A stretch of DNA of 14,456 nucleotides, taken from NCBI GenBank assembly GCA_965224245.1, contig CBDCYW010000021.1:1-14456 (forward strand). The letters are read 5' to 3'. Positions 657 through 9,449 of this stretch are shown piece after piece. Below the pieces are notes generated by a model. It had not been told where the DNA came from, ran no database searches, and worked only from the letters and a program-made list of their open reading frames with translations. Source of the stretch: Candidatus Eiseniibacteriota bacterium. Its GTDB lineage: Bacteria; Eisenbacteria; RBG-16-71-46; CAZAMP01. The position numbers and the translations under genes are program-made. Each line of letters opens with the position of its first letter. Position 1 is the stretch's first letter.

Positions 657-1250
657 CTACTTGAGCGAGGCGCGTAGACGGTTTGCCAATGAGCCCGCCT
701 TGTTCCCGACGACCTCACGCGGCCCGAGGTGCCGATCGGTGTAATCCAGCGCCGCCTTGTTGATCGAGACCTTGATCAAGTCGGGGTTCAGCACCTCCTC
801 GGTGTCCGGCCTTCCCTTGATCGCGACCTTCACGCTCTTGCCCGACTTCTCGACGAGGAACGTCACGCGCTCGGCGACGTTCGTGGCGCGGCCGCCGCTG
901 AACTCGCAGGGAACGCCGGCCTTCTTGCAGGCGTCGCGATAGGGGGCCAGCGCGGCCCGGTAGCCGTCCTTGGCGGTGGCGATGATGGTCCGCGCCTGCG
1001 CTTCCAGTGCTTCGGCCTCGGTCTTGGCCCGGGCGACCGCCGACTCGGCCTTAGTGACGGCGCCCCGGAGACCGTCGAGGTCGGGGGTGTCGCCGCCGGT
1101 CGCGGCGCGTGTGCGCGTCTTCGGGGTCGGCCGGGCCCCAGGGGCCTTCTTCGCCCCGGTCTTCGCCGTGCGCCCCGACTTCGCGCCGGTGCCGCCCTTG
1201 GTCGCCTTCGCCGCCGTCGTCTTCCCCGGGGCCTTCTTCGTCGTCGCCAT
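657..1250 (-). CDS. Hypothetical protein with a Lys/Ala/Thr/Gly-rich histone-like N-terminal tail and a coiled coil
   Basis: ORF track gives 657..1295. A better start is ATG at 1250, preceded by GGAGGA (1255-1260). It begins MATTKKAPGKTTAAKATKGG, followed by a helical AVTKAESAVARAKTEAEALEAQAR segment. Confidence 0.8.
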   Translation of the reverse strand: MATTKKAPGKTTAAKATKGGTGAKSGRTAKTGAKKAPGARPTPKTRTRAATGGDTPDLDGLRGAVTKAESAVARAKTEAEALEAQARTIIATAKDGYRAALAPYRDACKKAGVPCEFSGGRATNVAERVTFLVEKSGKSVKVAIKGRPDTEEVLNPDLIKVSINKAALDYTDRHLGPREVVGNKAGSLANRLRASLK

Positions 1251-1299
1251 CTCGTCCTCCTGGCTGTGTTGCAGGCGCGGCGGAATGCGCGCCACTGCG

Positions 1300-1389: not shown

Positions 1390-1674
1390 GGGAGCGAGGA
1401 GGTCTGAAAAGCTCCCTGCATCGCGGGCGCCAAACCGGACGCTGGGTGCGGCGTGAGGCACTGCTCGCCACGGCGAGCGGGCTGGGCGACAGAAGCGGCG
1501 ACATCCGGATACCACGACGCCCCCGACGACGCGCTCTGTCGCGCCGAGGGGGCGGGGTATCTGTTCCCCACGCCGATGAGGTGATGCGGAAGCGAAGGTG
1601 CAGAGCGCTGGTGATTGGGGAACGCAGGGACAGTACCACACTCATCGTTAGCGCCACGCAAAAGGAGGATGAGC

Positions 1675-2265
1675 GTGCCGTATCGCGCCCCCGAGACCAT
1701 GACCACCGCCGAGCAGCGGCGGCTCCTCGACGTCAGCGCCGAGAGCCCGAGGCCCCGCGATCACGTGATGATCTCGCTCGCGCTGGGCACCGGGCTTCGG
1801 CTCGGCGAGCTCCTCAGCCTCGACGTCGGCGACGTCAGCCCCGATGGCGTCCACGTGCGCACACGCGTGAAGCTGCGAGTCGAGACGACCAAGGGCGCGC
1901 GCAAGGGCGAGGTGTTTCTGCCGGATCGGGTCGTCGAGAAGGTGACGCGGTTCCTGGGTTGGAAGGCGATGATGCGGGAGTCGCTCGATGGCGACGCGCC
2001 GCTGTTCATCTCGTCGTGGGGGAGGCGGCTGTCGCCGAGGCGGACGCAGATGATGTTCAGGGAATGGCAGGCACGCGCCGGCCTTGACAGGTATTACTGC
2101 TTCCATGCACTTCGACACACGGCAGTGACGTCCGTATACCGGATGAGCCGCGACCTGTTTCTCGCCCAGCGATTCGCGAGGCATGCGTCGCCGCTCACGA
2201 CGGTGATCTACACTCATCCGAGCGATGAGGAGATGGCGGAGAGGGTGCGAGACCTGCGGTGCTGA
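1675..2265 (+). CDS. Tyrosine recombinase/integrase, catalytic domain only (~196 aa)
   Basis: Catalytic motifs GLRLGEL (R), TTKG (K), FHALRH (H-x-x-R) and RHASPLTTVIYTH (H...Y). AGGAGG at 1663-1668 favours GTG 1675 (or ATG 1669) over 1615. No N-terminal core-binding domain is present. Confidence 0.93.
   Translation: MPYRAPETMTTAEQRRLLDVSAESPRPRDHVMISLALGTGLRLGELLSLDVGDVSPDGVHVRTRVKLRVETTKGARKGEVFLPDRVVEKVTRFLGWKAMMRESLDGDAPLFISSWGRRLSPRRTQMMFREWQARAGLDRYYCFHALRHTAVTSVYRMSRDLFLAQRFARHASPLTTVIYTHPSDEEMAERVRDLRC
2140..2265 (+). repeat. Direct repeat copy 1: last 42 codons of the tyrosine recombinase
   Basis: Ungapped alignment to 2963-3088 (offset 823); about 90/126 nt identical by hand count, with an exact 21-bp core ttcgcgaggcatgcgtcgccg at 2173-2193. 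Confidence 0.92.
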
Positions 2266-2298
2266 GTCGAGCCACGCCCGGCAGTCGGGACGCCACGC

Positions 2299-2329
2299 GA
2301 AGGGCTTCCACCGTTCTCGGTAGCCCTTC
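2299..2329. other. Intergenic bulged stem-loop downstream of the recombinase
   Basis: GAAGGGCT-tcc-ACCG-ttct-CGGT-AGCCCTTC: 8-bp and 4-bp stems separated by a 3-nt bulge; no U-tract. Confidence 0.5.
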
Positions 2330-2399
2330 CGACCTGGAAAGGACCGCTATGACCTAGAATCCTCGCTCCTGGTAGACTCTTCCATCGGAGGCCCTTTGA

Positions 2400-2961
2400 A
2401 TGCATTCCGAACTTGATCCGAAGTTCGCAGCCTACGAGCCAGGCATCCCGCGAAGGCAGGTCCCCGATGTCGCCATTCGTGATGCCACGCCCGCTGACGC
2501 CGAGGGCATAGCCCAGGTTCACGTGGAGCGCCATGGCACCGACCTCGACGACGTCGTTCCCAGGGTTCTCCATGACCTCCAGCTAGTTGCAAACGGCGAA
2601 CGCCAGGCATATCGGTGCGTCGCCGTGCACGACGGTGCCATCGCCGGCTTTGCCAATTGCGACTTCGTGGATTCGCCCACGCCACGACCTGCCGCCCGGC
2701 ACGACGGGCTGGGGGCTCTCCGGCATCGTGATACTGCGAGCATACCGCCGATGTGGCATCGGTGAACGCCTTACGCGACGGCGTCTCGACTGGCTTCGCG
2801 AGCGTACCGACGAGGTGACCTACTTCGTCGAGATGGTCAATCGCGCGTCCATCGATCTGCACGCCCAGCTAGGCTTCGAGGAGATCGCGCGTGACGTTCT
2901 GATTGGCGGCGACCGTTCGCGCGGGCTGCACGGTGTCTATCGCCTTCGCTTTCGCCGGTGA
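2400..2961 (+). pseudogene. GNAT-family N-acetyltransferase, frameshifted near 2665-2690
   Basis: The N-half (IRDATPADAEGIAQVH...CVAVHDGAIAGFA) is in ORF 2400..2765. The C-half (GIVILRAYRRCGIG acetyl-CoA motif; NRASIDLHAQLGF) is in the +1 frame, ending at 2961. GGAGG RBS at 2387-2391. Confidence 0.85.
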
Positions 2962-2962
2962 C

Positions 2963-3088
2963 CGAGTTTCCCGCGTCCTGTTCCTGGCGTAGCGGTTCGC
3001 GAGGCATGCGTCGCCGTTGACGACGATCGTGTACACTCATGTATCAGATGAAGAGTTAATGGTGAGAGTTCGGGACCTCTCCTGCTGA
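2963..3088 (+). pseudogene. Direct repeat copy 2: orphan alternative 3' end of the tyrosine recombinase
   Basis: Translates RVSRVLFLA*RFARHASPLTTIVYTHVSDEELMVRVRDLSC* versus RMSRDLFLAQRFARHASPLTTVIYTHPSDEEMAERVRDLRC* (31/41 aa identical). TAG at 2990-2992; exact 21-bp core at 2996-3016. Confidence 0.92.
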
Positions 3089-3165
3089 TGCTCGACAAGA
3101 CGATGGTCGAGGTCACGCGCAGGTAGGTAGTCTCGCACGCGTCCATCCCAATCGGAGAAGTCCTC

Positions 3166-4890
3166 TTGCGCCGCGGCATCCGAGACTTGGCGAGAACAAC
3201 GGCTGCAGCAGCGACGATTATGTTCTGCACGTTCGCCGCCTGCGACGACGGTGTGTCTCCCGATACCACACCTCCAATCGTAGCCATAGTTGCGCCGGCA
3301 GATGGGGCTACCGTTACTTCGTCCACGGCAATCCGCGCCGACGCAACGGACAACGACCGCGTGCGCGACGTTGCCTTCTTCGTGGATGGTCAGGTGCTGG
3401 CAACGGACGCCACCGCTCCGTACGAAGTGCAGTGGGAGCCAGCATTCTGGGCGGATGGCGGAATCCATTCACTTCATGCACGAGCAACCGATCAATCGGC
3501 GAATGTCGGACTAAGTGAAGTGCTGAACGTCACCGTCGAGAAGTCTGAAAATGCGACCGTACAACTAATATCTCCCGAAGATGGTGCGAGCGTTCGGTTC
3601 GGCGATGTATTCACGTTGGCGTGGGAAGCATTAGCCGGAGCCGAGACCTATACCGTGCAAGTGGCACCCGACGACCTGTTTTCTACCATCTCTTTCGATA
3701 CGACCACAGAGAATGTCGAGGCGCAGGTATGCCCACTCGACTTCGGACGTTATTACTGGCGAGTGAGAGCGACTCACGAGACGGGTGCGGCGACAAGGTG
3801 GAGTCGTGTCAGGCTGCTCGCGTACGGGCGCTCCTTCAACAGTACCTTCGGTCCTGGTGTTGCGCGCGACGTTGAGATCACTCCAGACGGTGGTTTCATC
3901 ATTGCGGGATGGAACTACGCATCCAATCTTGTCGTCGTTCGAACCGACGCCGATGGAGATACACTCTGGACCTACACATCCACGTCGTCCGGTGACGACT
4001 ACGGTCACGCCGTCGTGGTTGATCCAAATGGCGGTTTTGTAATCGCCGGCGAAAGGTCTTTGCCACCGTTCGCTGCACTCGTTCTGAGAATTGATGACGA
4101 CGGGGATGTCGTGTGGGAGCGCACGTTCCTCGCCGGGGGCTACGCGGCCGGGGCCAAAGGGATCATCGCAACCGCCGATGGTGGATACGCAGTCGTTGGG
4201 ACAGCAAACACGCCGGTCGGTGGTGACCTCTGGCTCCTGAAGATGAACTCAGTTGGAGAGGAAGAATGGCAAAGGTCGTTCGACCTGTGCGACCAAGACA
4301 ACGGGAGATCCTTGTGTCTCGCCGACGAGGATGGCTATGCAATCGCTGGAGTCAGCTGTGGTGGGGATGGTGCGGGCCGTCGACTCGTCGTCGTTCGCGT
4401 AGATGGTGACGGCCGCGAGATGTGGTGCAGCGTGTACGGAACGTCGTATGAGACTGGGAACGCAATCGTCTCCAACGGCGCTGGTGGGTTCGTCTGTGCT
4501 GGCCAAATAGCGGACGCCGAAGTAGGAGGTTGGCTCGTCGGGATCGACGGCTCGGGAGAATTACTTTGGCAGCGCACATTGGCGGGTGGCGTTGCCGGGA
4601 TCATGTACGACGTGGATCGTACGGCAGATGGCGGCTTCGTGGTCACCGGGTTCACGAGCACGGGCGGTAGTGAGCGTCGTCAAATCTACCTTGAGAAGAC
4701 GGACCCAGCGGGAGTTGAGGAATGGCATCGACTTCTCGGTGGGGACGGCGACGACGTAGGGTATGCGGTCAAGGCGGACGAGGATCTTGGGTTCGTGGTG
4801 GCTGGCTGGAATGACAGCGATCGACTCCTCCGCCTTCTAAAGACCTCACCGACGGGCGAACTAATCGACGAAGAGACGGGTGCGCGATGA
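3166..4890 (+). CDS. Putative lipoprotein with a bacterial Ig-like domain, an FnIII-like domain and beta-propeller repeats (574 aa)
   Basis: Signal peptide with lipobox FAA-C (Cys codon at 3241). DTTPPIVAIVAPADGATV...VAFFVDG...APYEVQW is Ig-like; GRYYWRVRA is FnIII-like; repeated W..T...D.G..V....DGGFVIAG blades. TTG start with GGAGA upstream. Confidence 0.85.
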   Translation: MRRGIRDLARTTAAAATIMFCTFAACDDGVSPDTTPPIVAIVAPADGATVTSSTAIRADATDNDRVRDVAFFVDGQVLATDATAPYEVQWEPAFWADGGIHSLHARATDQSANVGLSEVLNVTVEKSENATVQLISPEDGASVRFGDVFTLAWEALAGAETYTVQVAPDDLFSTISFDTTTENVEAQVCPLDFGRYYWRVRATHETGAATRWSRVRLLAYGRSFNSTFGPGVARDVEITPDGGFIIAGWNYASNLVVVRTDADGDTLWTYTSTSSGDDYGHAVVVDPNGGFVIAGERSLPPFAALVLRIDDDGDVVWERTFLAGGYAAGAKGIIATADGGYAVVGTANTPVGGDLWLLKMNSVGEEEWQRSFDLCDQDNGRSLCLADEDGYAIAGVSCGGDGAGRRLVVVRVDGDGREMWCSVYGTSYETGNAIVSNGAGGFVCAGQIADAEVGGWLVGIDGSGELLWQRTLAGGVAGIMYDVDRTADGGFVVTGFTSTGGSERRQIYLEKTDPAGVEEWHRLLGGDGDDVGYAVKADEDLGFVVAGWNDSDRLLRLLKTSPTGELIDEETGAR

Positions 4891-4966
4891 GACCATGCGC
4901 CATCACCTCGACTGGAGTTGACCCGTTTTCGTGGACACTGCCACGCTTGTGCGATGGAGGTCCACA

Positions 4967-5278
4967 ATGCCCCGATCTCGATACCCCGAAGAGCTGAAGG
5001 CTCGGATCATCGAGCTGGCGCGGGCCGGGCGTAGCCCGGAGTCGCTGGCCGAGGAGTTCGAGCCGTCAGCGAACGCGATCCGTAACTGGGTCAAGCAGGC
5101 CGATCTCGATGACGGCCGACGCGACGACGGCGGCCTGACCAGCTCCGACCTGGCGGAGCTGCGCGAGCTTCGTCGTGAGAACCGGCGGCTTCGCGAAGAG
5201 CGCGAGATCCTAAAAAAAGCCGCGGCCTGGTTCGCTCGGGAGGCCGAGTCGACGCCGAAAAAGCGTTCGCGTTCGTGA
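4967..5278 (+). CDS. IS3-family transposase OrfA (HTH plus leucine-zipper-like segment)
   Basis: ATG at 4967 after GGAGG (4956-4960). Sequence RYPEELKARIIEL...IRNWVKQ...ELRELRRENRRLREEREILKKAAAWFARE. Confidence 0.92.
   Translation: MPRSRYPEELKARIIELARAGRSPESLAEEFEPSANAIRNWVKQADLDDGRRDDGGLTSSDLAELRELRRENRRLREEREILKKAAAWFAREAESTPKKRSRS
5212..5219 (+). other. Programmed -1 frameshift site (A7G) that would produce the OrfAB transposase
   Basis: taaaaaaagc near the end of orfA; orfB is in the -1 frame; this is the established IS3-family mechanism. Confidence 0.8.
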
Positions 5279-6168
5279 GCGCGAACCGGGCCGATCATGC
5301 CGTCACGACGATGTGCCGCGTGCTGGACGTCTCCACCAGCGGGTACTACGCGTGGCGACGTCGTTCGCCGAGCAAGCGCGCTCGGGAGAACCATCGTTTG
5401 GGCCAAGAGATCCGAGCGATCCATGACACCTCGCGTGGAACCTACGGCGTCCCTCGCGTCCATGCCGAGCTCGTGGAGCGTCGCCGGGAGGCGGGTGTGA
5501 CGGTGTCGCCGAGTCGCAACCGGATCGCCCGTCTGATGCGTCTGTTGGGCCTTCAGGGGGTCACTCGGCGCAAACGCTACAAGACGACGGTGCGAGATCA
5601 TCGCGATCGGGTGGCGCCCGATCTGGTGGATCGCCAGTTCGTCGCCAGCGGCCCCGATGCGTTGTGGGTGGCCGACATCACGTACGTTCCGACGTGGGTC
5701 GGCTTCCTGTTCCTGGCGGTCGTGCTGGACGTGTGGAGTCGTCGCGTGGTCGGTTGGGCCATGGCCAGCCATCTTCGGACCGAGCTCGTTCTCGACGCCC
5801 TCGAGATGGCGATCATGCAGCGCCGACCGACGACCCAGACGATCTTCCATTCCGACCAGGGAAGCCAATACACGTCGATCGAGTTCGGCAAGCGCTGCCG
5901 GGAAGCGGGCATCCGCCCATCCACGGGATCGGTGGCCGATTGTTACGACAACGCGATGTGCGAAAGCTTCTTCGCCACGCTCGAATGTGAGCTCATCGAT
6001 CGCACGGCATTCCCGAACCACCAGATCGCGACCCGTGAGGTGTTCTCGTTCATCGAGGGCTGGTATAACCCGCATCGTCGACATTCAGCTCTCGGCTACC
6101 TCTCTCCCGCGCAGTTCGAAAGGAGGACTCAACAAGACAGAAGACCAGAACCCGGAATCCTCAACTGA
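5275..6168 (+). CDS. IS3-family transposase OrfB (DDE/rve domain)
   Basis: DDE motifs WVADITYV, HSDQGSQY and YDNAMCESFF, plus YNPHRRHSALGYLSP. Confidence 0.95.
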   Translation: MSANRADHAVTTMCRVLDVSTSGYYAWRRRSPSKRARENHRLGQEIRAIHDTSRGTYGVPRVHAELVERRREAGVTVSPSRNRIARLMRLLGLQGVTRRKRYKTTVRDHRDRVAPDLVDRQFVASGPDALWVADITYVPTWVGFLFLAVVLDVWSRRVVGWAMASHLRTELVLDALEMAIMQRRPTTQTIFHSDQGSQYTSIEFGKRCREAGIRPSTGSVADCYDNAMCESFFATLECELIDRTAFPNHQIATREVFSFIEGWYNPHRRHSALGYLSPAQFERRTQQDRRPEPGILN

Positions 6169-6251: not shown

Positions 6252-6860
6252 TTGAGCGTAAAGACGATCACTATCAAGTTCGACGATAGATGCTTCGAGT
6301 GTGGCTGGTATACCGACGGGACGACGGTTCACGTGCAGTGCGAGTTCGGCACCGCCAGCGAAGGCCTTGGCGCATCACACAATCACAAGAAGAAGGCTCG
6401 GAAGATGCTCCGGAGGATGATCGAGAACGGACTCTTCGGGGGCACGCCTGAGAACTACCTGGACAAGGCAAGGGACTTCCGAGACTGCGTGCGGGAATTG
6501 ATGCCGACCTGTCCAGGATGGGAGCAGGGGCATGCTGCGGCTGGCACCCGTCGCCTGATAGGAGACGCGTTCGAGCTATCTCTGAAGGCAGTGTGGCTGG
6601 CTGAGGGTGCCAGATGGCATGCCTTGAAGGACGCTGGTCATGACCTGACACGGCTCCTTGAGGGTTGCAACCTAGCCGGAGTGGCAGATGAACACGCCGA
6701 TCTCGTCAGGCGCATATCACCGTTTCACAAGCGGCGCGACTTCATGTACGTGAATCGCACCGGCGTTCGCTATCTCCCACCCGTGGGCGACCTGGTTGAC
6801 GCCCTAGATGCGATCATCGCCCTGGCCGAGCCGGTTTGCCGCGAGGCCATGATGCGGTGA
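6252..6860 (+). CDS. HEPN-like domain protein with an extra N-terminal domain
   Basis: AFELSLKA...G...LKDAGHDLTRLL matches the HEPN E..LKA / GH.L pattern. Start is TTG 6252 (GGAG at 6242-6245) or GTG 6240. Confidence 0.65.
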   Translation: MSVKTITIKFDDRCFECGWYTDGTTVHVQCEFGTASEGLGASHNHKKKARKMLRRMIENGLFGGTPENYLDKARDFRDCVRELMPTCPGWEQGHAAAGTRRLIGDAFELSLKAVWLAEGARWHALKDAGHDLTRLLEGCNLAGVADEHADLVRRISPFHKRRDFMYVNRTGVRYLPPVGDLVDALDAIIALAEPVCREAMMR

Positions 6861-6917: not shown

Positions 6918-7256
6918 TCATCGATGTCCAAGCCGACTGATACGTCTACGCTGGTCCGACCATGAGACCGACCGAAGCGCCTCGCGAAGCCGTCGCTCCC
7001 CGACGACGATCGACCCGTCGACCAACCCCACCTGGATCTCCGGCGCCAGCCCCAGCAGCGCCGTGATCTGCGAGAGCCTCGCCCTCGACACCCCGGCGAC
7101 CCGCGCCACGTCGGCGAAGCTCTCGATCCGCCCGTCGCGCACCATCGCGTCCAGCACGAGCGCAAGCGCCATCAACCTCGCCGATCGGGGCACGGTGGGG
7201 GCCTCAGGTTCGGGGGCCGCCTTGGGGCGAAACGTGGCACGAATGGTCACACTCAC
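6918..7256 (-). CDS. Small HTH protein coupled to the serine recombinase
   Basis: SFADVARVAGVSRARLSQITALLGLAPEIQ is a ParB/Spo0J-like HTH. Its GTG start overlaps the recombinase stop (GTGA, 7253-7256). Confidence 0.8.
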   Translation of the reverse strand: MSVTIRATFRPKAAPEPEAPTVPRSARLMALALVLDAMVRDGRIESFADVARVAGVSRARLSQITALLGLAPEIQVGLVDGSIVVGERRLREALRSVSWSDQRRRISRLGHR

Positions 7257-8782
7257 CGCTCACCGCCGGGCAGAAGCGAGACCGCACCCTCACGAAACGT
7301 GATCGCCACCTCGCCGGTCGACCCGTCGTACTCGACACGCTCGACGAGCAGCGTGAGGGTCTCGTGCTTCTCACGCGCCGTCAGACGCCCCCACAGCGCG
7401 TCGAACTCCGACAGGGCTTCCGAGACGCCCGTGCGGTTGATCGTGCGGCCACGGACCGCTGTGAGCGTTTCCTGGGCCACACGGCGGCGGCGCTCGGTGC
7501 TCCTGAGGCGTCGGTTGATCTCGGCGATGCGATCGTCGTCGTGTTCGTCACGGGCGCGGTTGAGTTCTCTACGGAGCTGCTTGATCTCGGCGTCAAGCAG
7601 GCGGACGTCGTTGGCGAGTTCTTTCACGCGAACCTTGGCCTGGGACTTGGCGGACGCGACGGTGGCGGCGATCAGCTTGGGGTCGCTGCCGATGCCCCGG
7701 ATCTGGTCGATGACGAACGCTTCGATCTCGCCAGCGGCGACCGGTGCGGTGGGGCAGGCGTGCGCCCCTTCCTTCTGGCGACGGGTGCAGACGTAGTACG
7801 CGTACGATCGGCGGCGCTTCACCGTCGCGGTCCGGGTCATCGCGGCGTCGCAGGCGGAGCAGCGGAGTAGGCCCGCGAGCAGGGCCGTGCGCTTCGTCCT
7901 CGGGGCCGAACCGTTCGTCACGCGGTTACCGGCCAGACACGCCTGCGCGGCCTCGAAGGTCTCGGAGTCCACGATGGCCTCGTGCTCTGCGTCCACGATC
8001 TCGTCACCGCAGCGGATCTGGCCCACGTAGAGGGGGTTCGTCAGGAGCTTCTGGAGCGTCGACTTACCGAAGTCCACGCCACCGTGGACCTTGTCCGAGG
8101 CCGACACCCAGCGTTTCGTGGTCCAGCCCCGGCGGCGGATCTCGGCGATGGTGGCCGAGAGCGATCGGTTCTCCAGGTAGACGCGGAAGACTTCTCGGAC
8201 CCGCTCGGCCTCGACCTCGTTCACGGCGAGCCGGCCACCACCTTCGGCCACGTCGTACCCGAGCACCGGCACGCCTCCGGTCCACTGGCCCCGTCGCCGC
8301 GCTGCCCGCATCTTGTCTCGGGTGCGCTCGCGGATCATCTCGCGCTCGAACTCCGCGAAGCTCATCAGCATGTTCAGCGTCAGCCGGCCCATCGACGACG
8401 ACGTATCGAGTTGCTGGGTGACAGACACGAGGCCAACCTCGTGCTTCTCCAGCGTCTGCATGATCCGGGCGAAGTCCAGCAGCGAGCGGGAGAGTCGGTC
8501 GACCTTGTACACGACGATCCGGTCGATCAGGCCCGCCTCGACGTCGCGCAGCAGCCGCTGGAACGCCGGGCGCTCGGTTGTGCCACCGGAGAAACCGCCG
8601 TCGTCGTAGCGGTCGGGAAGCGGCATCCACCCGAGACCCGCCTGCGACCGGACGAACGCCTCGGCCGACTCCCGCTGGGCGTCGAGCGTGTTGAAGGCCT
8701 GATCCAGGCCCTCGTCGGTGGACTTGCGGGTGTAGATGGCGCAGCGCACCTCGGGGGCCGATGTGGTCGACAGGACGGCCAT
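7253..8782 (-). CDS. Large serine recombinase (resolvase + recombinase + Zn-ribbon + coiled coil), ~509 aa
   Basis: RCAIYTRKS (catalytic Ser), YKVDRLSR, FAEFEREMIRERTRD, LAGLLRCSACDAAM...YYVC...C. ATG at 8782 sits just after the DUF2924 stop; the ORF-track extension to 8920 overlaps DUF2924. Confidence 0.95.
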   Translation of the reverse strand: MAVLSTTSAPEVRCAIYTRKSTDEGLDQAFNTLDAQRESAEAFVRSQAGLGWMPLPDRYDDGGFSGGTTERPAFQRLLRDVEAGLIDRIVVYKVDRLSRSLLDFARIMQTLEKHEVGLVSVTQQLDTSSSMGRLTLNMLMSFAEFEREMIRERTRDKMRAARRRGQWTGGVPVLGYDVAEGGGRLAVNEVEAERVREVFRVYLENRSLSATIAEIRRRGWTTKRWVSASDKVHGGVDFGKSTLQKLLTNPLYVGQIRCGDEIVDAEHEAIVDSETFEAAQACLAGNRVTNGSAPRTKRTALLAGLLRCSACDAAMTRTATVKRRRSYAYYVCTRRQKEGAHACPTAPVAAGEIEAFVIDQIRGIGSDPKLIAATVASAKSQAKVRVKELANDVRLLDAEIKQLRRELNRARDEHDDDRIAEINRRLRSTERRRRVAQETLTAVRGRTINRTGVSEALSEFDALWGRLTAREKHETLTLLVERVEYDGSTGEVAITFREGAVSLLPGGER

Positions 8783-8784
8783 GG

Positions 8785-9282
8785 TCAGTCTCTCGCTCTC
8801 TTGGCGCCCCAAAACACCTTGCCGTTCCAGTTCACGCCGGTCGCGGCCCTCGCCGCCCCGCTTAGCGAGCGGTACACCTCGCCGTCGAACTCGAAGCCGC
8901 CGTGCTCGAGGACGCGGCACTCTAGGACGCGGCCTCTGTACTCCCGGCGGAGCACCGTCCCGGCGGGCGGGAGGTTGAGATCACGCGATGACAAGCGTTT
9001 GCGAACGCGAGACGACGAGCGTGCGCCCGCCTCGGCGCCAATCGGTGGTCGCGTGCGCAGGAACGCGAAGTCGGCCAGCTCCCGGGCCCGGGCCATCACG
9101 GCCTCCGGGTGCCCCGAGAAGCCCTCGGCGTCGGCCTGGAGCTTCCAGGCGATGCGTTTCACCAAGTGCGCCTTGCTGTGCGAGCGCGTCTCCTCGCCCC
9201 ACAGGTCCCGGTAGCGCCGCTGAAGGTCGGCGACCGTCATGGCCCGCAGCGTCTCCAGCTCTCGATCCAGGTCCAGGGTCAC
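8785..9282 (-). CDS. DUF2924-family protein
   Basis: LRAMTVADLQRRYRDLWG...KRIAWKLQ...PPAGTVLRREYRG...YRSLSGAARAATGVNWNGKVFWG. GGAGGA RBS at 9286-9291. Usual position directly upstream of a serine recombinase. Confidence 0.9.
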   Translation of the reverse strand: MTLDLDRELETLRAMTVADLQRRYRDLWGEETRSHSKAHLVKRIAWKLQADAEGFSGHPEAVMARARELADFAFLRTRPPIGAEAGARSSSRVRKRLSSRDLNLPPAGTVLRREYRGRVLECRVLEHGGFEFDGEVYRSLSGAARAATGVNWNGKVFWGAKRARD

Positions 9283-9314
9283 GGGTCCTCCTCTCTCGGG
9301 GTGTCAACCGTGGG

Positions 9315-9348
9315 GACATGGACGCTCGGAGTGGCGGGGACATCAAGT
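9315..9348 (-). promoter_or_regulatory. Conserved upstream motif, copy C (CTTGAT-N14-GAGCG-TC-CATGTC)
   Basis: About 26 of 34 positions match copy A (1302-1335). It lies about 33 bp upstream of the DUF2924 start, in the same relative orientation as copy A to its gene. Confidence 0.6.
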
Positions 9349-9449
9349 GGATCGTTGGGGAGCTCGCCGGGAATCAAGCGGAGGTAGGCGCGGGCCAGCA
9401 GAGTCGCGAGCGCCGTGTGATCCAGGTCATTGCTCATGCTGACCATGCG

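Follow-up and report, generated by a model that had tools for sequence, protein, structure and literature searches.

The DNA analysed here (the window) is a complete contig of 14,456 nt (14.5 kb) from a genome assembled into one 6.45-Mb contig (69 % GC) and 26 small contigs (57–69 % GC). It contains an intact tyrosine recombinase gene on the forward strand (positions 1669–2265, ATG at 1669 and TGA at 2263–2265), whose product of 198 aa consists of the catalytic domain only and matches PF00589 over residues 10–187 of 198 (91.4 bits, cut-off 27.1). Divergent from it lies ORF212 (657–1295, reverse strand), without a Pfam match. Downstream of the recombinase gene there is a stretch (2266–2960, forward strand; from the ORF list and Pfam) of intergenic DNA and a GNAT acetyltransferase gene, which is broken over two frames (2400–2765 and 2587–2961), with a match to PF00583 in the second frame only (35.8 bits); it is probably a frameshifted pseudogene, or else reflects a sequencing error. 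Further to the right are a forward gene for a Big_7/beta-propeller-like secreted protein of 574 aa (3166–4890; PF17957, 67.7 bits), a forward IS3-family transposase in two ORFs (4931–6168; HTH_Tnp_1, HTH_21 and rve) and, on the reverse strand, the start of a conserved block (6949–9400), recognised by the synteny of eight paralogous loci and by Pfam, with ORF112, a large serine recombinase gene (7253–8920) and a DUF2924 gene (8785–9282), the last two identified with Pfam.

The recombinase belongs to a family of proteins of 194–198 aa with at least 2695 matches, which carry generic XerC names. Residues R44, K75, H146, R149, H172 and Y181 are invariant in 26 aligned members, and we take them to be the catalytic R-K-H-R-H/W-Y set, H172 presumably being the second catalytic His of the window recombinase. 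Xer, Cre and lambda Int possess an N-terminal core-binding (SAM-like) domain, which is absent from this protein, since it begins nine residues ahead of the PF00589 match; this marks a subgroup and not an exclusion from the tyrosine recombinase superfamily. Scores were far below the cut-offs of the NCBIfam equivalog models for XerA (90.6 against 220), XerC (82.6 against 335) and XerD (64 against 330), of the FimB/FimE-type invertase model PRK09871 (30.1 against 222) and of the integron-integrase models TIGR02249 (48.9 against 265 bits) and PRK15417 (21.9 against 435 bits). A search of 45 loci totalling 380 kb identified no inverted repeats of 50 nt or longer. Only four IMG/VR loci contain the family, indicating that it is not typical of recognised viruses.

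The 3′ end of the recombinase gene occurs twice in the window. A repeat search detected a direct repeat of 118 nt with 74 % identity (2148–2265 and 2971–3088, at a spacing of 823), and alignment and an nhmmer search with a DNA profile of the family extended it to codons 157–198 plus stop, in the gene itself (copy A, 2137–2265) and downstream of the GNAT gene on the same strand (copy B, 2961–3088; 2961–3085 by nhmmer). The two copies are identical at 58 of 70 positions through codon 183 and at 26 of 45 in the tail, and the sequences outside the repeat are unlike each other (17/60 identical before it and 18/60 after it). Copy B has an in-frame TAG at 2990–2992 (codon 167, CAG in the intact gene) and is open from F169 to its own stop. 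A search of all contigs with the recombinase recovered copy B (E 1.4e-13, with one TAG) and no other recombinase fragment in the genome. Within the repeat, the gene and the remnant have two exact tracts in common, a 21-mer spanning codons 169–175 (F-A-R-H-A-S-P, including the codon for H172; 2173–2193 and 2996–3016, both on the forward strand) and the 9 nt for Y181-T182-H183 (2209–2217 in the gene); the codons that the window gene uses at 181–183 are found in none of the other seven of the eight paralogues compared. The second 21-mer is part of an orphaned 3′ end of a recombinase gene (2961–3088), and the Big_7 gene, being the first gene past this displaced tail, was presumably the former neighbour of the recombinase gene.

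Eight full-length recombinase paralogues are present in the genome (85–87 % aa identity), of which the large contig carries one and the small contigs seven, and the window is part of a mobile element with eight related copies in this genome. These copies share a layout of ORF212 on the reverse strand, the recombinase gene, a variable region and a conserved block with ORF112, the large serine recombinase, the DUF2924 protein and an HTH protein, followed by AAA_24, DUF669, ERCC4 and PrimPol/D5_N. The variable region, bounded by the recombinase gene and the right-hand block, is 883 bp long in two copies; in the window it measures 4683 bp and contains the GNAT gene, the remnant, the Big_7/propeller gene, the IS3 transposase and ORF206. 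Paralogues C10, C23a and C23b have both the tail type and the downstream gene in common. A pre-insertion locus, with a tail of the remnant type directly before the Big_7 gene, was not found in 60 relatives searched at the DNA and protein levels, and a search for sequencing runs covering positions 1600–3600 gave no entry.

The first-pass annotation drew attention to the 21-mer, and its basic description holds. The window contains two exact copies of the 21-mer and no other match at up to three mismatches, two matches did not occur in any of 200 shuffled windows, and translation places both copies in frame as FARHASP. Likewise, flanking codons do differ at wobble positions, as had been pointed out, but the repeat is not limited to 21 nt and extends over 118–125 nt. 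Since both copies are homologous coding sequence, the shuffled window is the wrong null for an exact tract of this kind, and we therefore compared remnants with genes from other loci. An exact run of at least 21 nt occurred in 6.2 % of 2712 such pairs. The remnant from the window has a run of this length with 4 of 79 unique family genes, among them two unrelated metagenome genes whose runs (26 and 24 nt) exceed the 21 nt shared with its own gene, and the exact 21-mer is carried by 2 of the 79. The tract is thus within the family background, at about 5–6 %, and is ordinary.

The same annotation read a 16-nt palindrome within the 21-mer (2176–2191) as a recombination core overlapping the codon of the catalytic His, in which inverted arms of 4 bp flank a spacer of 8 bp. 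Seven of its eight pairs are indeed complementary; however, the window contains nine 16-mers with at least 7/8 complementary pairs, against 9.7 ± 3.0 in 30 block shuffles, and among homologous 16-nt segments only 3 of 79 genes keep 7/8 pairs, most having 2–5. It had also named normal synonymous diversity at these codons as evidence against such a core, and normal diversity is what eight paralogues and 79 homologues display. The FARHASP codons differ among all eight paralogues (GCG/GCA/GCT, AGG/CGG/CGA/CGC, CAT/CAC, TCG/TCA and CCG/CCT/CCC); third-position pairwise identity at the seven codons among 74 unique homologues is 0.33–0.65, as elsewhere in the gene; Ser174 is coded by AGY as well as by TCN; and the sequence of the 21-mer is private to nearly every gene. 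Two other candidate signatures were discarded. A palindrome GTCAG-CCCG-CTGAC over H172–T178 showed no wobble covariation and its sequence is unique in nearly every gene, and DNA folds of 2955–3100 and 2132–2277, examined on both strands for hairpin sites resembling attC, were no better than those of shuffled sequences (z-scores +1.95, +0.97, +0.74 and −0.16).

Full-length genes with C-terminal fragments behind them were also found in relatives of the same class and in metagenome-assembled genomes labelled Acidobacteriota, Eisenbacteria and Terriglobia. In a set of 80 metagenome loci, picked out of at least 591 solely for containing a full-length gene, 22 loci carried a total of 28 C-terminal fragments, all of them downstream and on the strand of the gene; none was found upstream (191 kb searched) or antisense, the downstream search having covered 213 kb in the 80 loci. 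A scan at the DNA level with nhmmer gave 110 hits on the forward strand and none on the reverse. The set of remnants is biased to coding-like sequence, as its initial detection relied on a protein profile, and nhmmer added only four fragments to the 26 from that profile, a scarcity of decayed remnants suggesting turnover or maintenance and not passive scars. Except for a few (in L036, L087, L095 and L124, and the second fragment of L090), the fragments reach the stop codon, and their left edges range from codon 107 to 185, mostly 140–174. Compared with unrelated genes of the family, the identity of the remnants from about codon 172 to the stop is 0.92–1.0 at codon positions 1 and 2 and 0.35–0.55 at position 3; these values are the same as those between genes, indicating that the remnants are recently functional gene ends.

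The units are separated by 36–3620 nt of non-repeat DNA, often with one gene, and cargo with Pfam support includes HSDR_N-like, RES, Abi_alpha, RAMA, HNH, protein kinase and SDR genes. Among the 36 longest ORFs, chosen from 66 listed, ten genes were clearly supported by Pfam, four on the strand of the recombinase gene and six on the opposite strand. The pattern is not restricted to the recombinase, because ORF212, a gene unrelated to the recombinase whose 3′ end likewise borders variable DNA, has C-terminal fragments downstream of itself and on its own strand in two of the sister elements (two in C11 and three in C3). In contrast, orphaned ends of the internal core genes (serine recombinase and DUF2924) or of ORF112 were not found in the sister elements. 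These loci have the architecture of C-terminal displacement, in which orphaned 3′ fragments lie behind an intact gene and in its orientation; in the window and across the family, a variable tip is also sharply delimited from a constant body.

We then examined where relatedness breaks. Genes L078 and L106 are 88 % identical through codon 184 and unrelated beyond. L090 and L099 agree in a cargo block and in the remnant as far as codon 182, but neither in the tail nor in the DNA that follows; a second shared block is first in one of these arrays and lies behind the remnant in the other. Fragments consisting only of the tail begin at codons 179–185. In L116, a tail fragment of 44 nt is 100 % identical to the tail of its own gene and a near-identical block of 58 nt follows both tail copies after ca. 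100 nt, although a shared downstream element of this type is not general across loci. Third-position distances divide the gene into three blocks (aa 1–132, 133–176 and 177–198). The correlation between adjacent windows has a minimum at codons 175–181 (0.03–0.07), which is weak on its own, there being similar lows at 85–87 and 107–115 that are possibly due to alignment gaps. In a maximum chi-square analysis of 33 gene pairs (left identity ≥85 %, right identity ≤72 %; several pairs not independent), breakpoints mapped to codons 130–146 in 18 pairs, mostly among the paralogues of this genome; the other 15, for the most part from independent loci, have theirs at codons 173–192. Exchange therefore involves the tail and the DNA behind it as one unit, whose boundary is that between the conserved body and the variable tail, mostly at codons 173–192.

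Most junctions thus fall 10–20 codons downstream of the 21-mer, around Y181-T-H-P-S185, and not at the place where the first-pass annotation expected crossovers; its broader proposal of a recombination site in the 3′ end of the gene survives in that DNA did recombine in at this end, though not at the dyad core. In spite of the clustering at codons 173–192, no short window of 6–8 nt is identical in all 26 gene–remnant pairs. We also considered a crossover at or after the stop codon, with the remnant as the module's own site, an idea weakened both by L090 and L099, which share cargo and left arm but not the tail, and by the coding-type conservation of the remnants. The sequences after the stop codons of units from the same locus were at background in 42 of 45 pairs, and the three above it comprised two overlapping windows and one from L042. 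L078 and L101 were rejected as a filled and an empty site, because their tails differ and the shared 167 nt (95 %) begin where a convergent gene has its stop codon.

Taking together the anatomy of the locus, the constant polarity of the fragments across the family and the break of relatedness near codons 173–192, we favour, with a probability of about 0.55, an insertion anchored by homology as the origin of the displaced tail, a process for which the encoded recombinase would not be needed. The last third of the resident gene would have been the point of entry, by recombination, of DNA carrying the end of a related gene and the GNAT gene. The resident gene would have retained its body, acquired a tail of incoming sequence (2218–2265, codons ~184 to stop) and remained intact; the old tail, with a short conserved stretch ahead of it, would have moved 823 bp downstream. 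The anchor would be homology in the conserved gene body, and the other end may have been joined illegitimately, or the whole may result from a single crossover of a circular piece. The identical 21 nt, and the 9 nt at codons 181–183, would then be the residue of strong amino-acid constraint and shared codon choice. Homology anchoring accounts for the polarity, the variable left edges, the coding-type conservation of the remnants and the absence of a site signature, as well as for the seemingly fixed right edge, because this is simply the gene end, and for a junction that appears to lie where the variable tail starts. The fragments of ORF212, which is not a recombinase, make us lean in the same direction. 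There is also a parallel in the strings of orphaned 3′ regions at Rhs and type VI secretion (T6SS) loci, for which two reports propose homology-facilitated illegitimate recombination (PMC5361080, PMC3482391). Several observations speak against it, however. The gene that collects the fragments is itself a site-specific recombinase, so that a self-directed reaction is a natural suspect; repeats of 75–165 nt with 60–90 % identity are poor substrates for recombination of the RecA type; and several fragments show next to no homology to the left of the junction, with none in L116 and only 5 nt in L066. In addition, fragment left edges at codons 179–185 coincide with the junctions between gene pairs, as a fixed crossover would predict, and in 8–9 of 26 pairs of a gene with its own remnant the longest exact run lies over codons 170–175, against 7–15 % of background pairs, which is about twice the background frequency.

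This excess is also one of the arguments for a site-specific capture targeted by the recombinase to its own gene, which we regard as a possible but distinctly less probable explanation. The site of the enzyme might lie in its own reading frame, with the crossover near codons 181–185 and FARHASP in the left arm; circular modules composed of a replacement tail, cargo and a mimic of the left arm could, on this tentative scheme, be integrated by the enzyme; and each event might conceivably renew the last ~14 codons and send the old tail downstream, as in an integron with attI inside the integrase gene. Such a reaction would agree with the strict polarity of the fragments, with the clustering of junctions and tail-only left edges at codons 179–192 in loci from different phyla, with the different order of modules in L090 and L099, with modules of 36–3620 nt that often hold a single gene, and with a coding quality that is retained to the right of the junction, stops appearing to its left (e.g., codon 167 in the window). 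Also in its favour, the codon choices at 169–175 and 181–183 are common to the window gene and its remnant and missing in the other seven paralogues, the sequence at codons 181–183 is private to each paralogue, and attachment sites inside integrase genes have precedents in phage Mx8 (PMC6070905) and in archaeal SSV-type elements (PMC8371274). It would explain why arrays form at a recombinase gene in several phyla, why fragments without homology on the left start at the same few codons, and why decayed fragments are scarce. On the other hand, nucleotides are not conserved past coding constraint, there is neither an inverted-arm architecture nor a short window identical in all gene–remnant pairs, and the third position of codon 182 agrees in 0.35 of own pairs, which is the background value. 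Breakpoints scatter across ~20 codons and cluster again near codon 130, left edges are spread from codon 107 to 185, the Pfam-supported cargo lies in both orientations (4 + and 6 −), and ORF212 has the same arrays. It is possible, though less probable than not, that a widespread family of minimal recombinases in soil and sediment bacteria (Acidobacteriota, Eisenbacteria and Myxococcota metagenome-assembled genomes) runs a gene-capture platform in the enzyme's own frame, with a landing site just past the codon of the catalytic Tyr. A local accident, be it a one-off tandem duplication, a decayed second recombinase gene alongside, whose 5′ part was lost upon entry of the GNAT gene, or a misassembled contig, would fit the sole recombinase remnant of this genome and a region whose GNAT frameshift and remnant stop look like decay, but is very unlikely, because several other genomes and 22 of 80 independent metagenome loci have this layout with constant polarity, and copies only 74 % identical are not what duplication by an assembler yields. 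Least credible of all is that the 21-mer itself, kept identical by selection at the DNA level, is a core site in which GCGA/TCGC arms enclose an 8-bp spacer, with the codon of the catalytic His in the middle. Its exactness over seven wobble positions, its 7/8 complementary pairs and the restriction of the AGG and CAT codons to the window gene and remnant among the paralogues of the genome suggested it; the chance frequency and poor retention of the palindrome, the normal synonymous variation, the longer exact runs of the remnant with unrelated family genes and the position of most mapped junctions further downstream contradict it, and the comparison of homologues largely refutes it.

The arrays are comparable with those of polymorphic toxins, namely Rhs, CdiA and the T6SS effector–immunity arrays of Vibrio cholerae (PMC5361080, PMC3482391): an intact gene with a constant body and a variable 3′ tip is followed by orphaned 3′ fragments on the same strand, each of which starts in the conserved region and runs through to the former stop codon, and other genes lie between them. 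Unlike in those systems, the genes here are that of a 198-aa tyrosine recombinase and, beside it, ORF212, on a mobile element, with no secreted toxin, the variable tip is of ~14 residues and not a separate domain, and the intervening genes are mixed cargo (GNAT, RES, Abi_alpha, HSDR_N-like, SDR and kinase) instead of cognate immunity genes. The recombinase arrays thus resemble toxin arrays in their working but are not members of the toxin families.

Among integrases, the Mx8 IntP/attP system is described as a bacterial tyrosine integrase with the attachment site in its own coding sequence, so that the gene acquires another 3′ end upon recombination (PMC6070905). There, the complete phage integrates into a tRNA-linked attB of the chromosome, with host DNA supplying this 3′ end, whereas here small modules without an integrase pile up behind an intact gene and no defined att core was found. 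Archaeal SSV-type ("suicidal") integrases have their target within the integrase gene, and fragments of this gene mark past events; they are split and inactivated into int(N) and int(C) at the ends of the element and are called, in a review, exclusive to archaea (PMC8371274). The gene studied here stays whole, and only C-terminal pieces occur, directly downstream. As in integrons (IntI, attI and attC), a tyrosine recombinase gene lies beside short modules split by a repeated element of 60–165 nt, with the newest module closest to the gene, but this repeated element copies the end of the gene itself, has no hairpin fold, and the cargo is in both orientations. In Islander-type integration into tRNA genes, the target is similarly restored by the incoming DNA and the opposite end of the insert is marked by the displaced 3′ fragment (PMC4383910). 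In the present loci, the recombinase gene is itself the target, and the inserts are of 0.04–3.6 kb without an integrase of their own.

The displaced recombinase tail of the window is one case of a widespread array pattern that is apparently undescribed: no description of it for this recombinase family was found in the literature searched, most subscription journals being outside the search. Genes from a family of small recombinases of this size (at least 2695 matches) accumulate, in series, displaced ends of their own, interspersed with metabolic and defence-type cargo. If the insertions are anchored by homology, C-terminal displacement, known from toxin genes, would also apply to mobile-element core genes, and orphaned gene ends would be a simple signature for cargo hotspots and for the order of acquisition. 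If the recombinase itself acts, these loci would be a new kind of gene-capture platform, integron-like but with a wholly different site logic, they would be the first such system in bacteria whose recombinase rewrites its own C-terminus at each event, and the arrays of gene ends would be a record of captures of defence and metabolic genes. Whichever mechanism holds, such fragments will be missed by annotation pipelines or labelled as pseudogenes.

The source genome (G000) contains one mobile element in eight related copies, on contigs C1, C3, C10, C11, C18, C22 (the contig of the window) and C23. Common to all eight copies is a gene set comprising a small tyrosine recombinase, a large serine recombinase, DUF2924, AAA_24, DUF669, ERCC4 and PrimPol/D5_N. 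Seven of the copies are on small contigs (62–65 % GC), which may be plasmids, phage-plasmids or unplaced pieces, and the remaining one is situated at 6.10 Mb of the main contig (69 % GC). In the variable region of the window, the GNAT acetyltransferase gene (2400–2961) consists of two overlapping frames, of which only the distal one matches PF00583; this split gene is either a pseudogene or the result of a sequencing error. The same region contains an IS3-family insertion sequence (4931–6168) with an HTH_Tnp_1 ORF and an rve ORF that overlap at 5275–5278, a related copy of which is carried by C23.

The eight paralogous recombinase genes showed 84–95 % identity over their first 360 nt; over the following 144 nt, identity was 62–94 % and the genes grouped differently. 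For the gene of the window, the compared parts were 1669–2060 versus 2060–2265. Max-chi-square analysis detected a sharp break near codon 130 in 12 of 33 gene pairs, all 33 having at least 85 % identity to the left of the breakpoint and at most 72 % to its right. This pattern of sequence identity suggests that the 5′ part of the gene was homogenized or that its 3′ third was swapped. At the C-terminus, residues R194, L196 and C198 are conserved in the family protein alignment (A2), the very last residue being an invariant cysteine (codon 2260–2262 in the window), which is unusual for a tyrosine recombinase.

Further observations concern the sequences beyond this gene end in two metagenome loci carrying a recombinase of this family. 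In locus L116, the last 44 nt of the recombinase gene recur with 100 % identity ca. 935 nt downstream, and each copy of the tail is followed, after ca. 100 nt, by a 58-nt block (regions 6542–6739 and 7477–7677). The two blocks differ by a single base and may have a function linked to the tail; a block of this type after the tail was not seen in other loci. In locus L078, the 65 nt (2137–2201) separating the stop codon of the recombinase remnant from the next conserved gene include a GGTTCAATCC-type stretch, resembling a tRNA T-arm, which may be a tRNA-gene fragment left by another integration event.

The last 5–9 codons (region 6918–6948) of ORF112 (112 residues, minus strand), whose 3′ end is oriented towards the variable region, vary like the recombinase tail, because its paralogues align no further than residues 103–107. 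A search for orphaned ORF112 fragments found none. ORF212 (657–1295, minus strand) has a basic N-terminus, rich in Ala and Lys, and matches neither Pfam nor NCBIfam profiles. In two sister elements (C11, ca. 45.6–49.0 kb, and C3, 4.2–7.7 kb), C-terminal fragments of ORF212 (residues 126–212, 139–212, 162–212 and 174–212) are arrayed downstream of this gene and on its own strand, mirroring the recombinase remnants.

Self-comparison of 45 of the metagenome loci L054–L133 (380 kb) identified 57 direct and no inverted repeats of at least 50 nt. Several direct repeats spaced by kilobases do not include the recombinase gene, such as L079 333–882/2429–2978 and those in L130, and may correspond to the orphaned ends of further genes.
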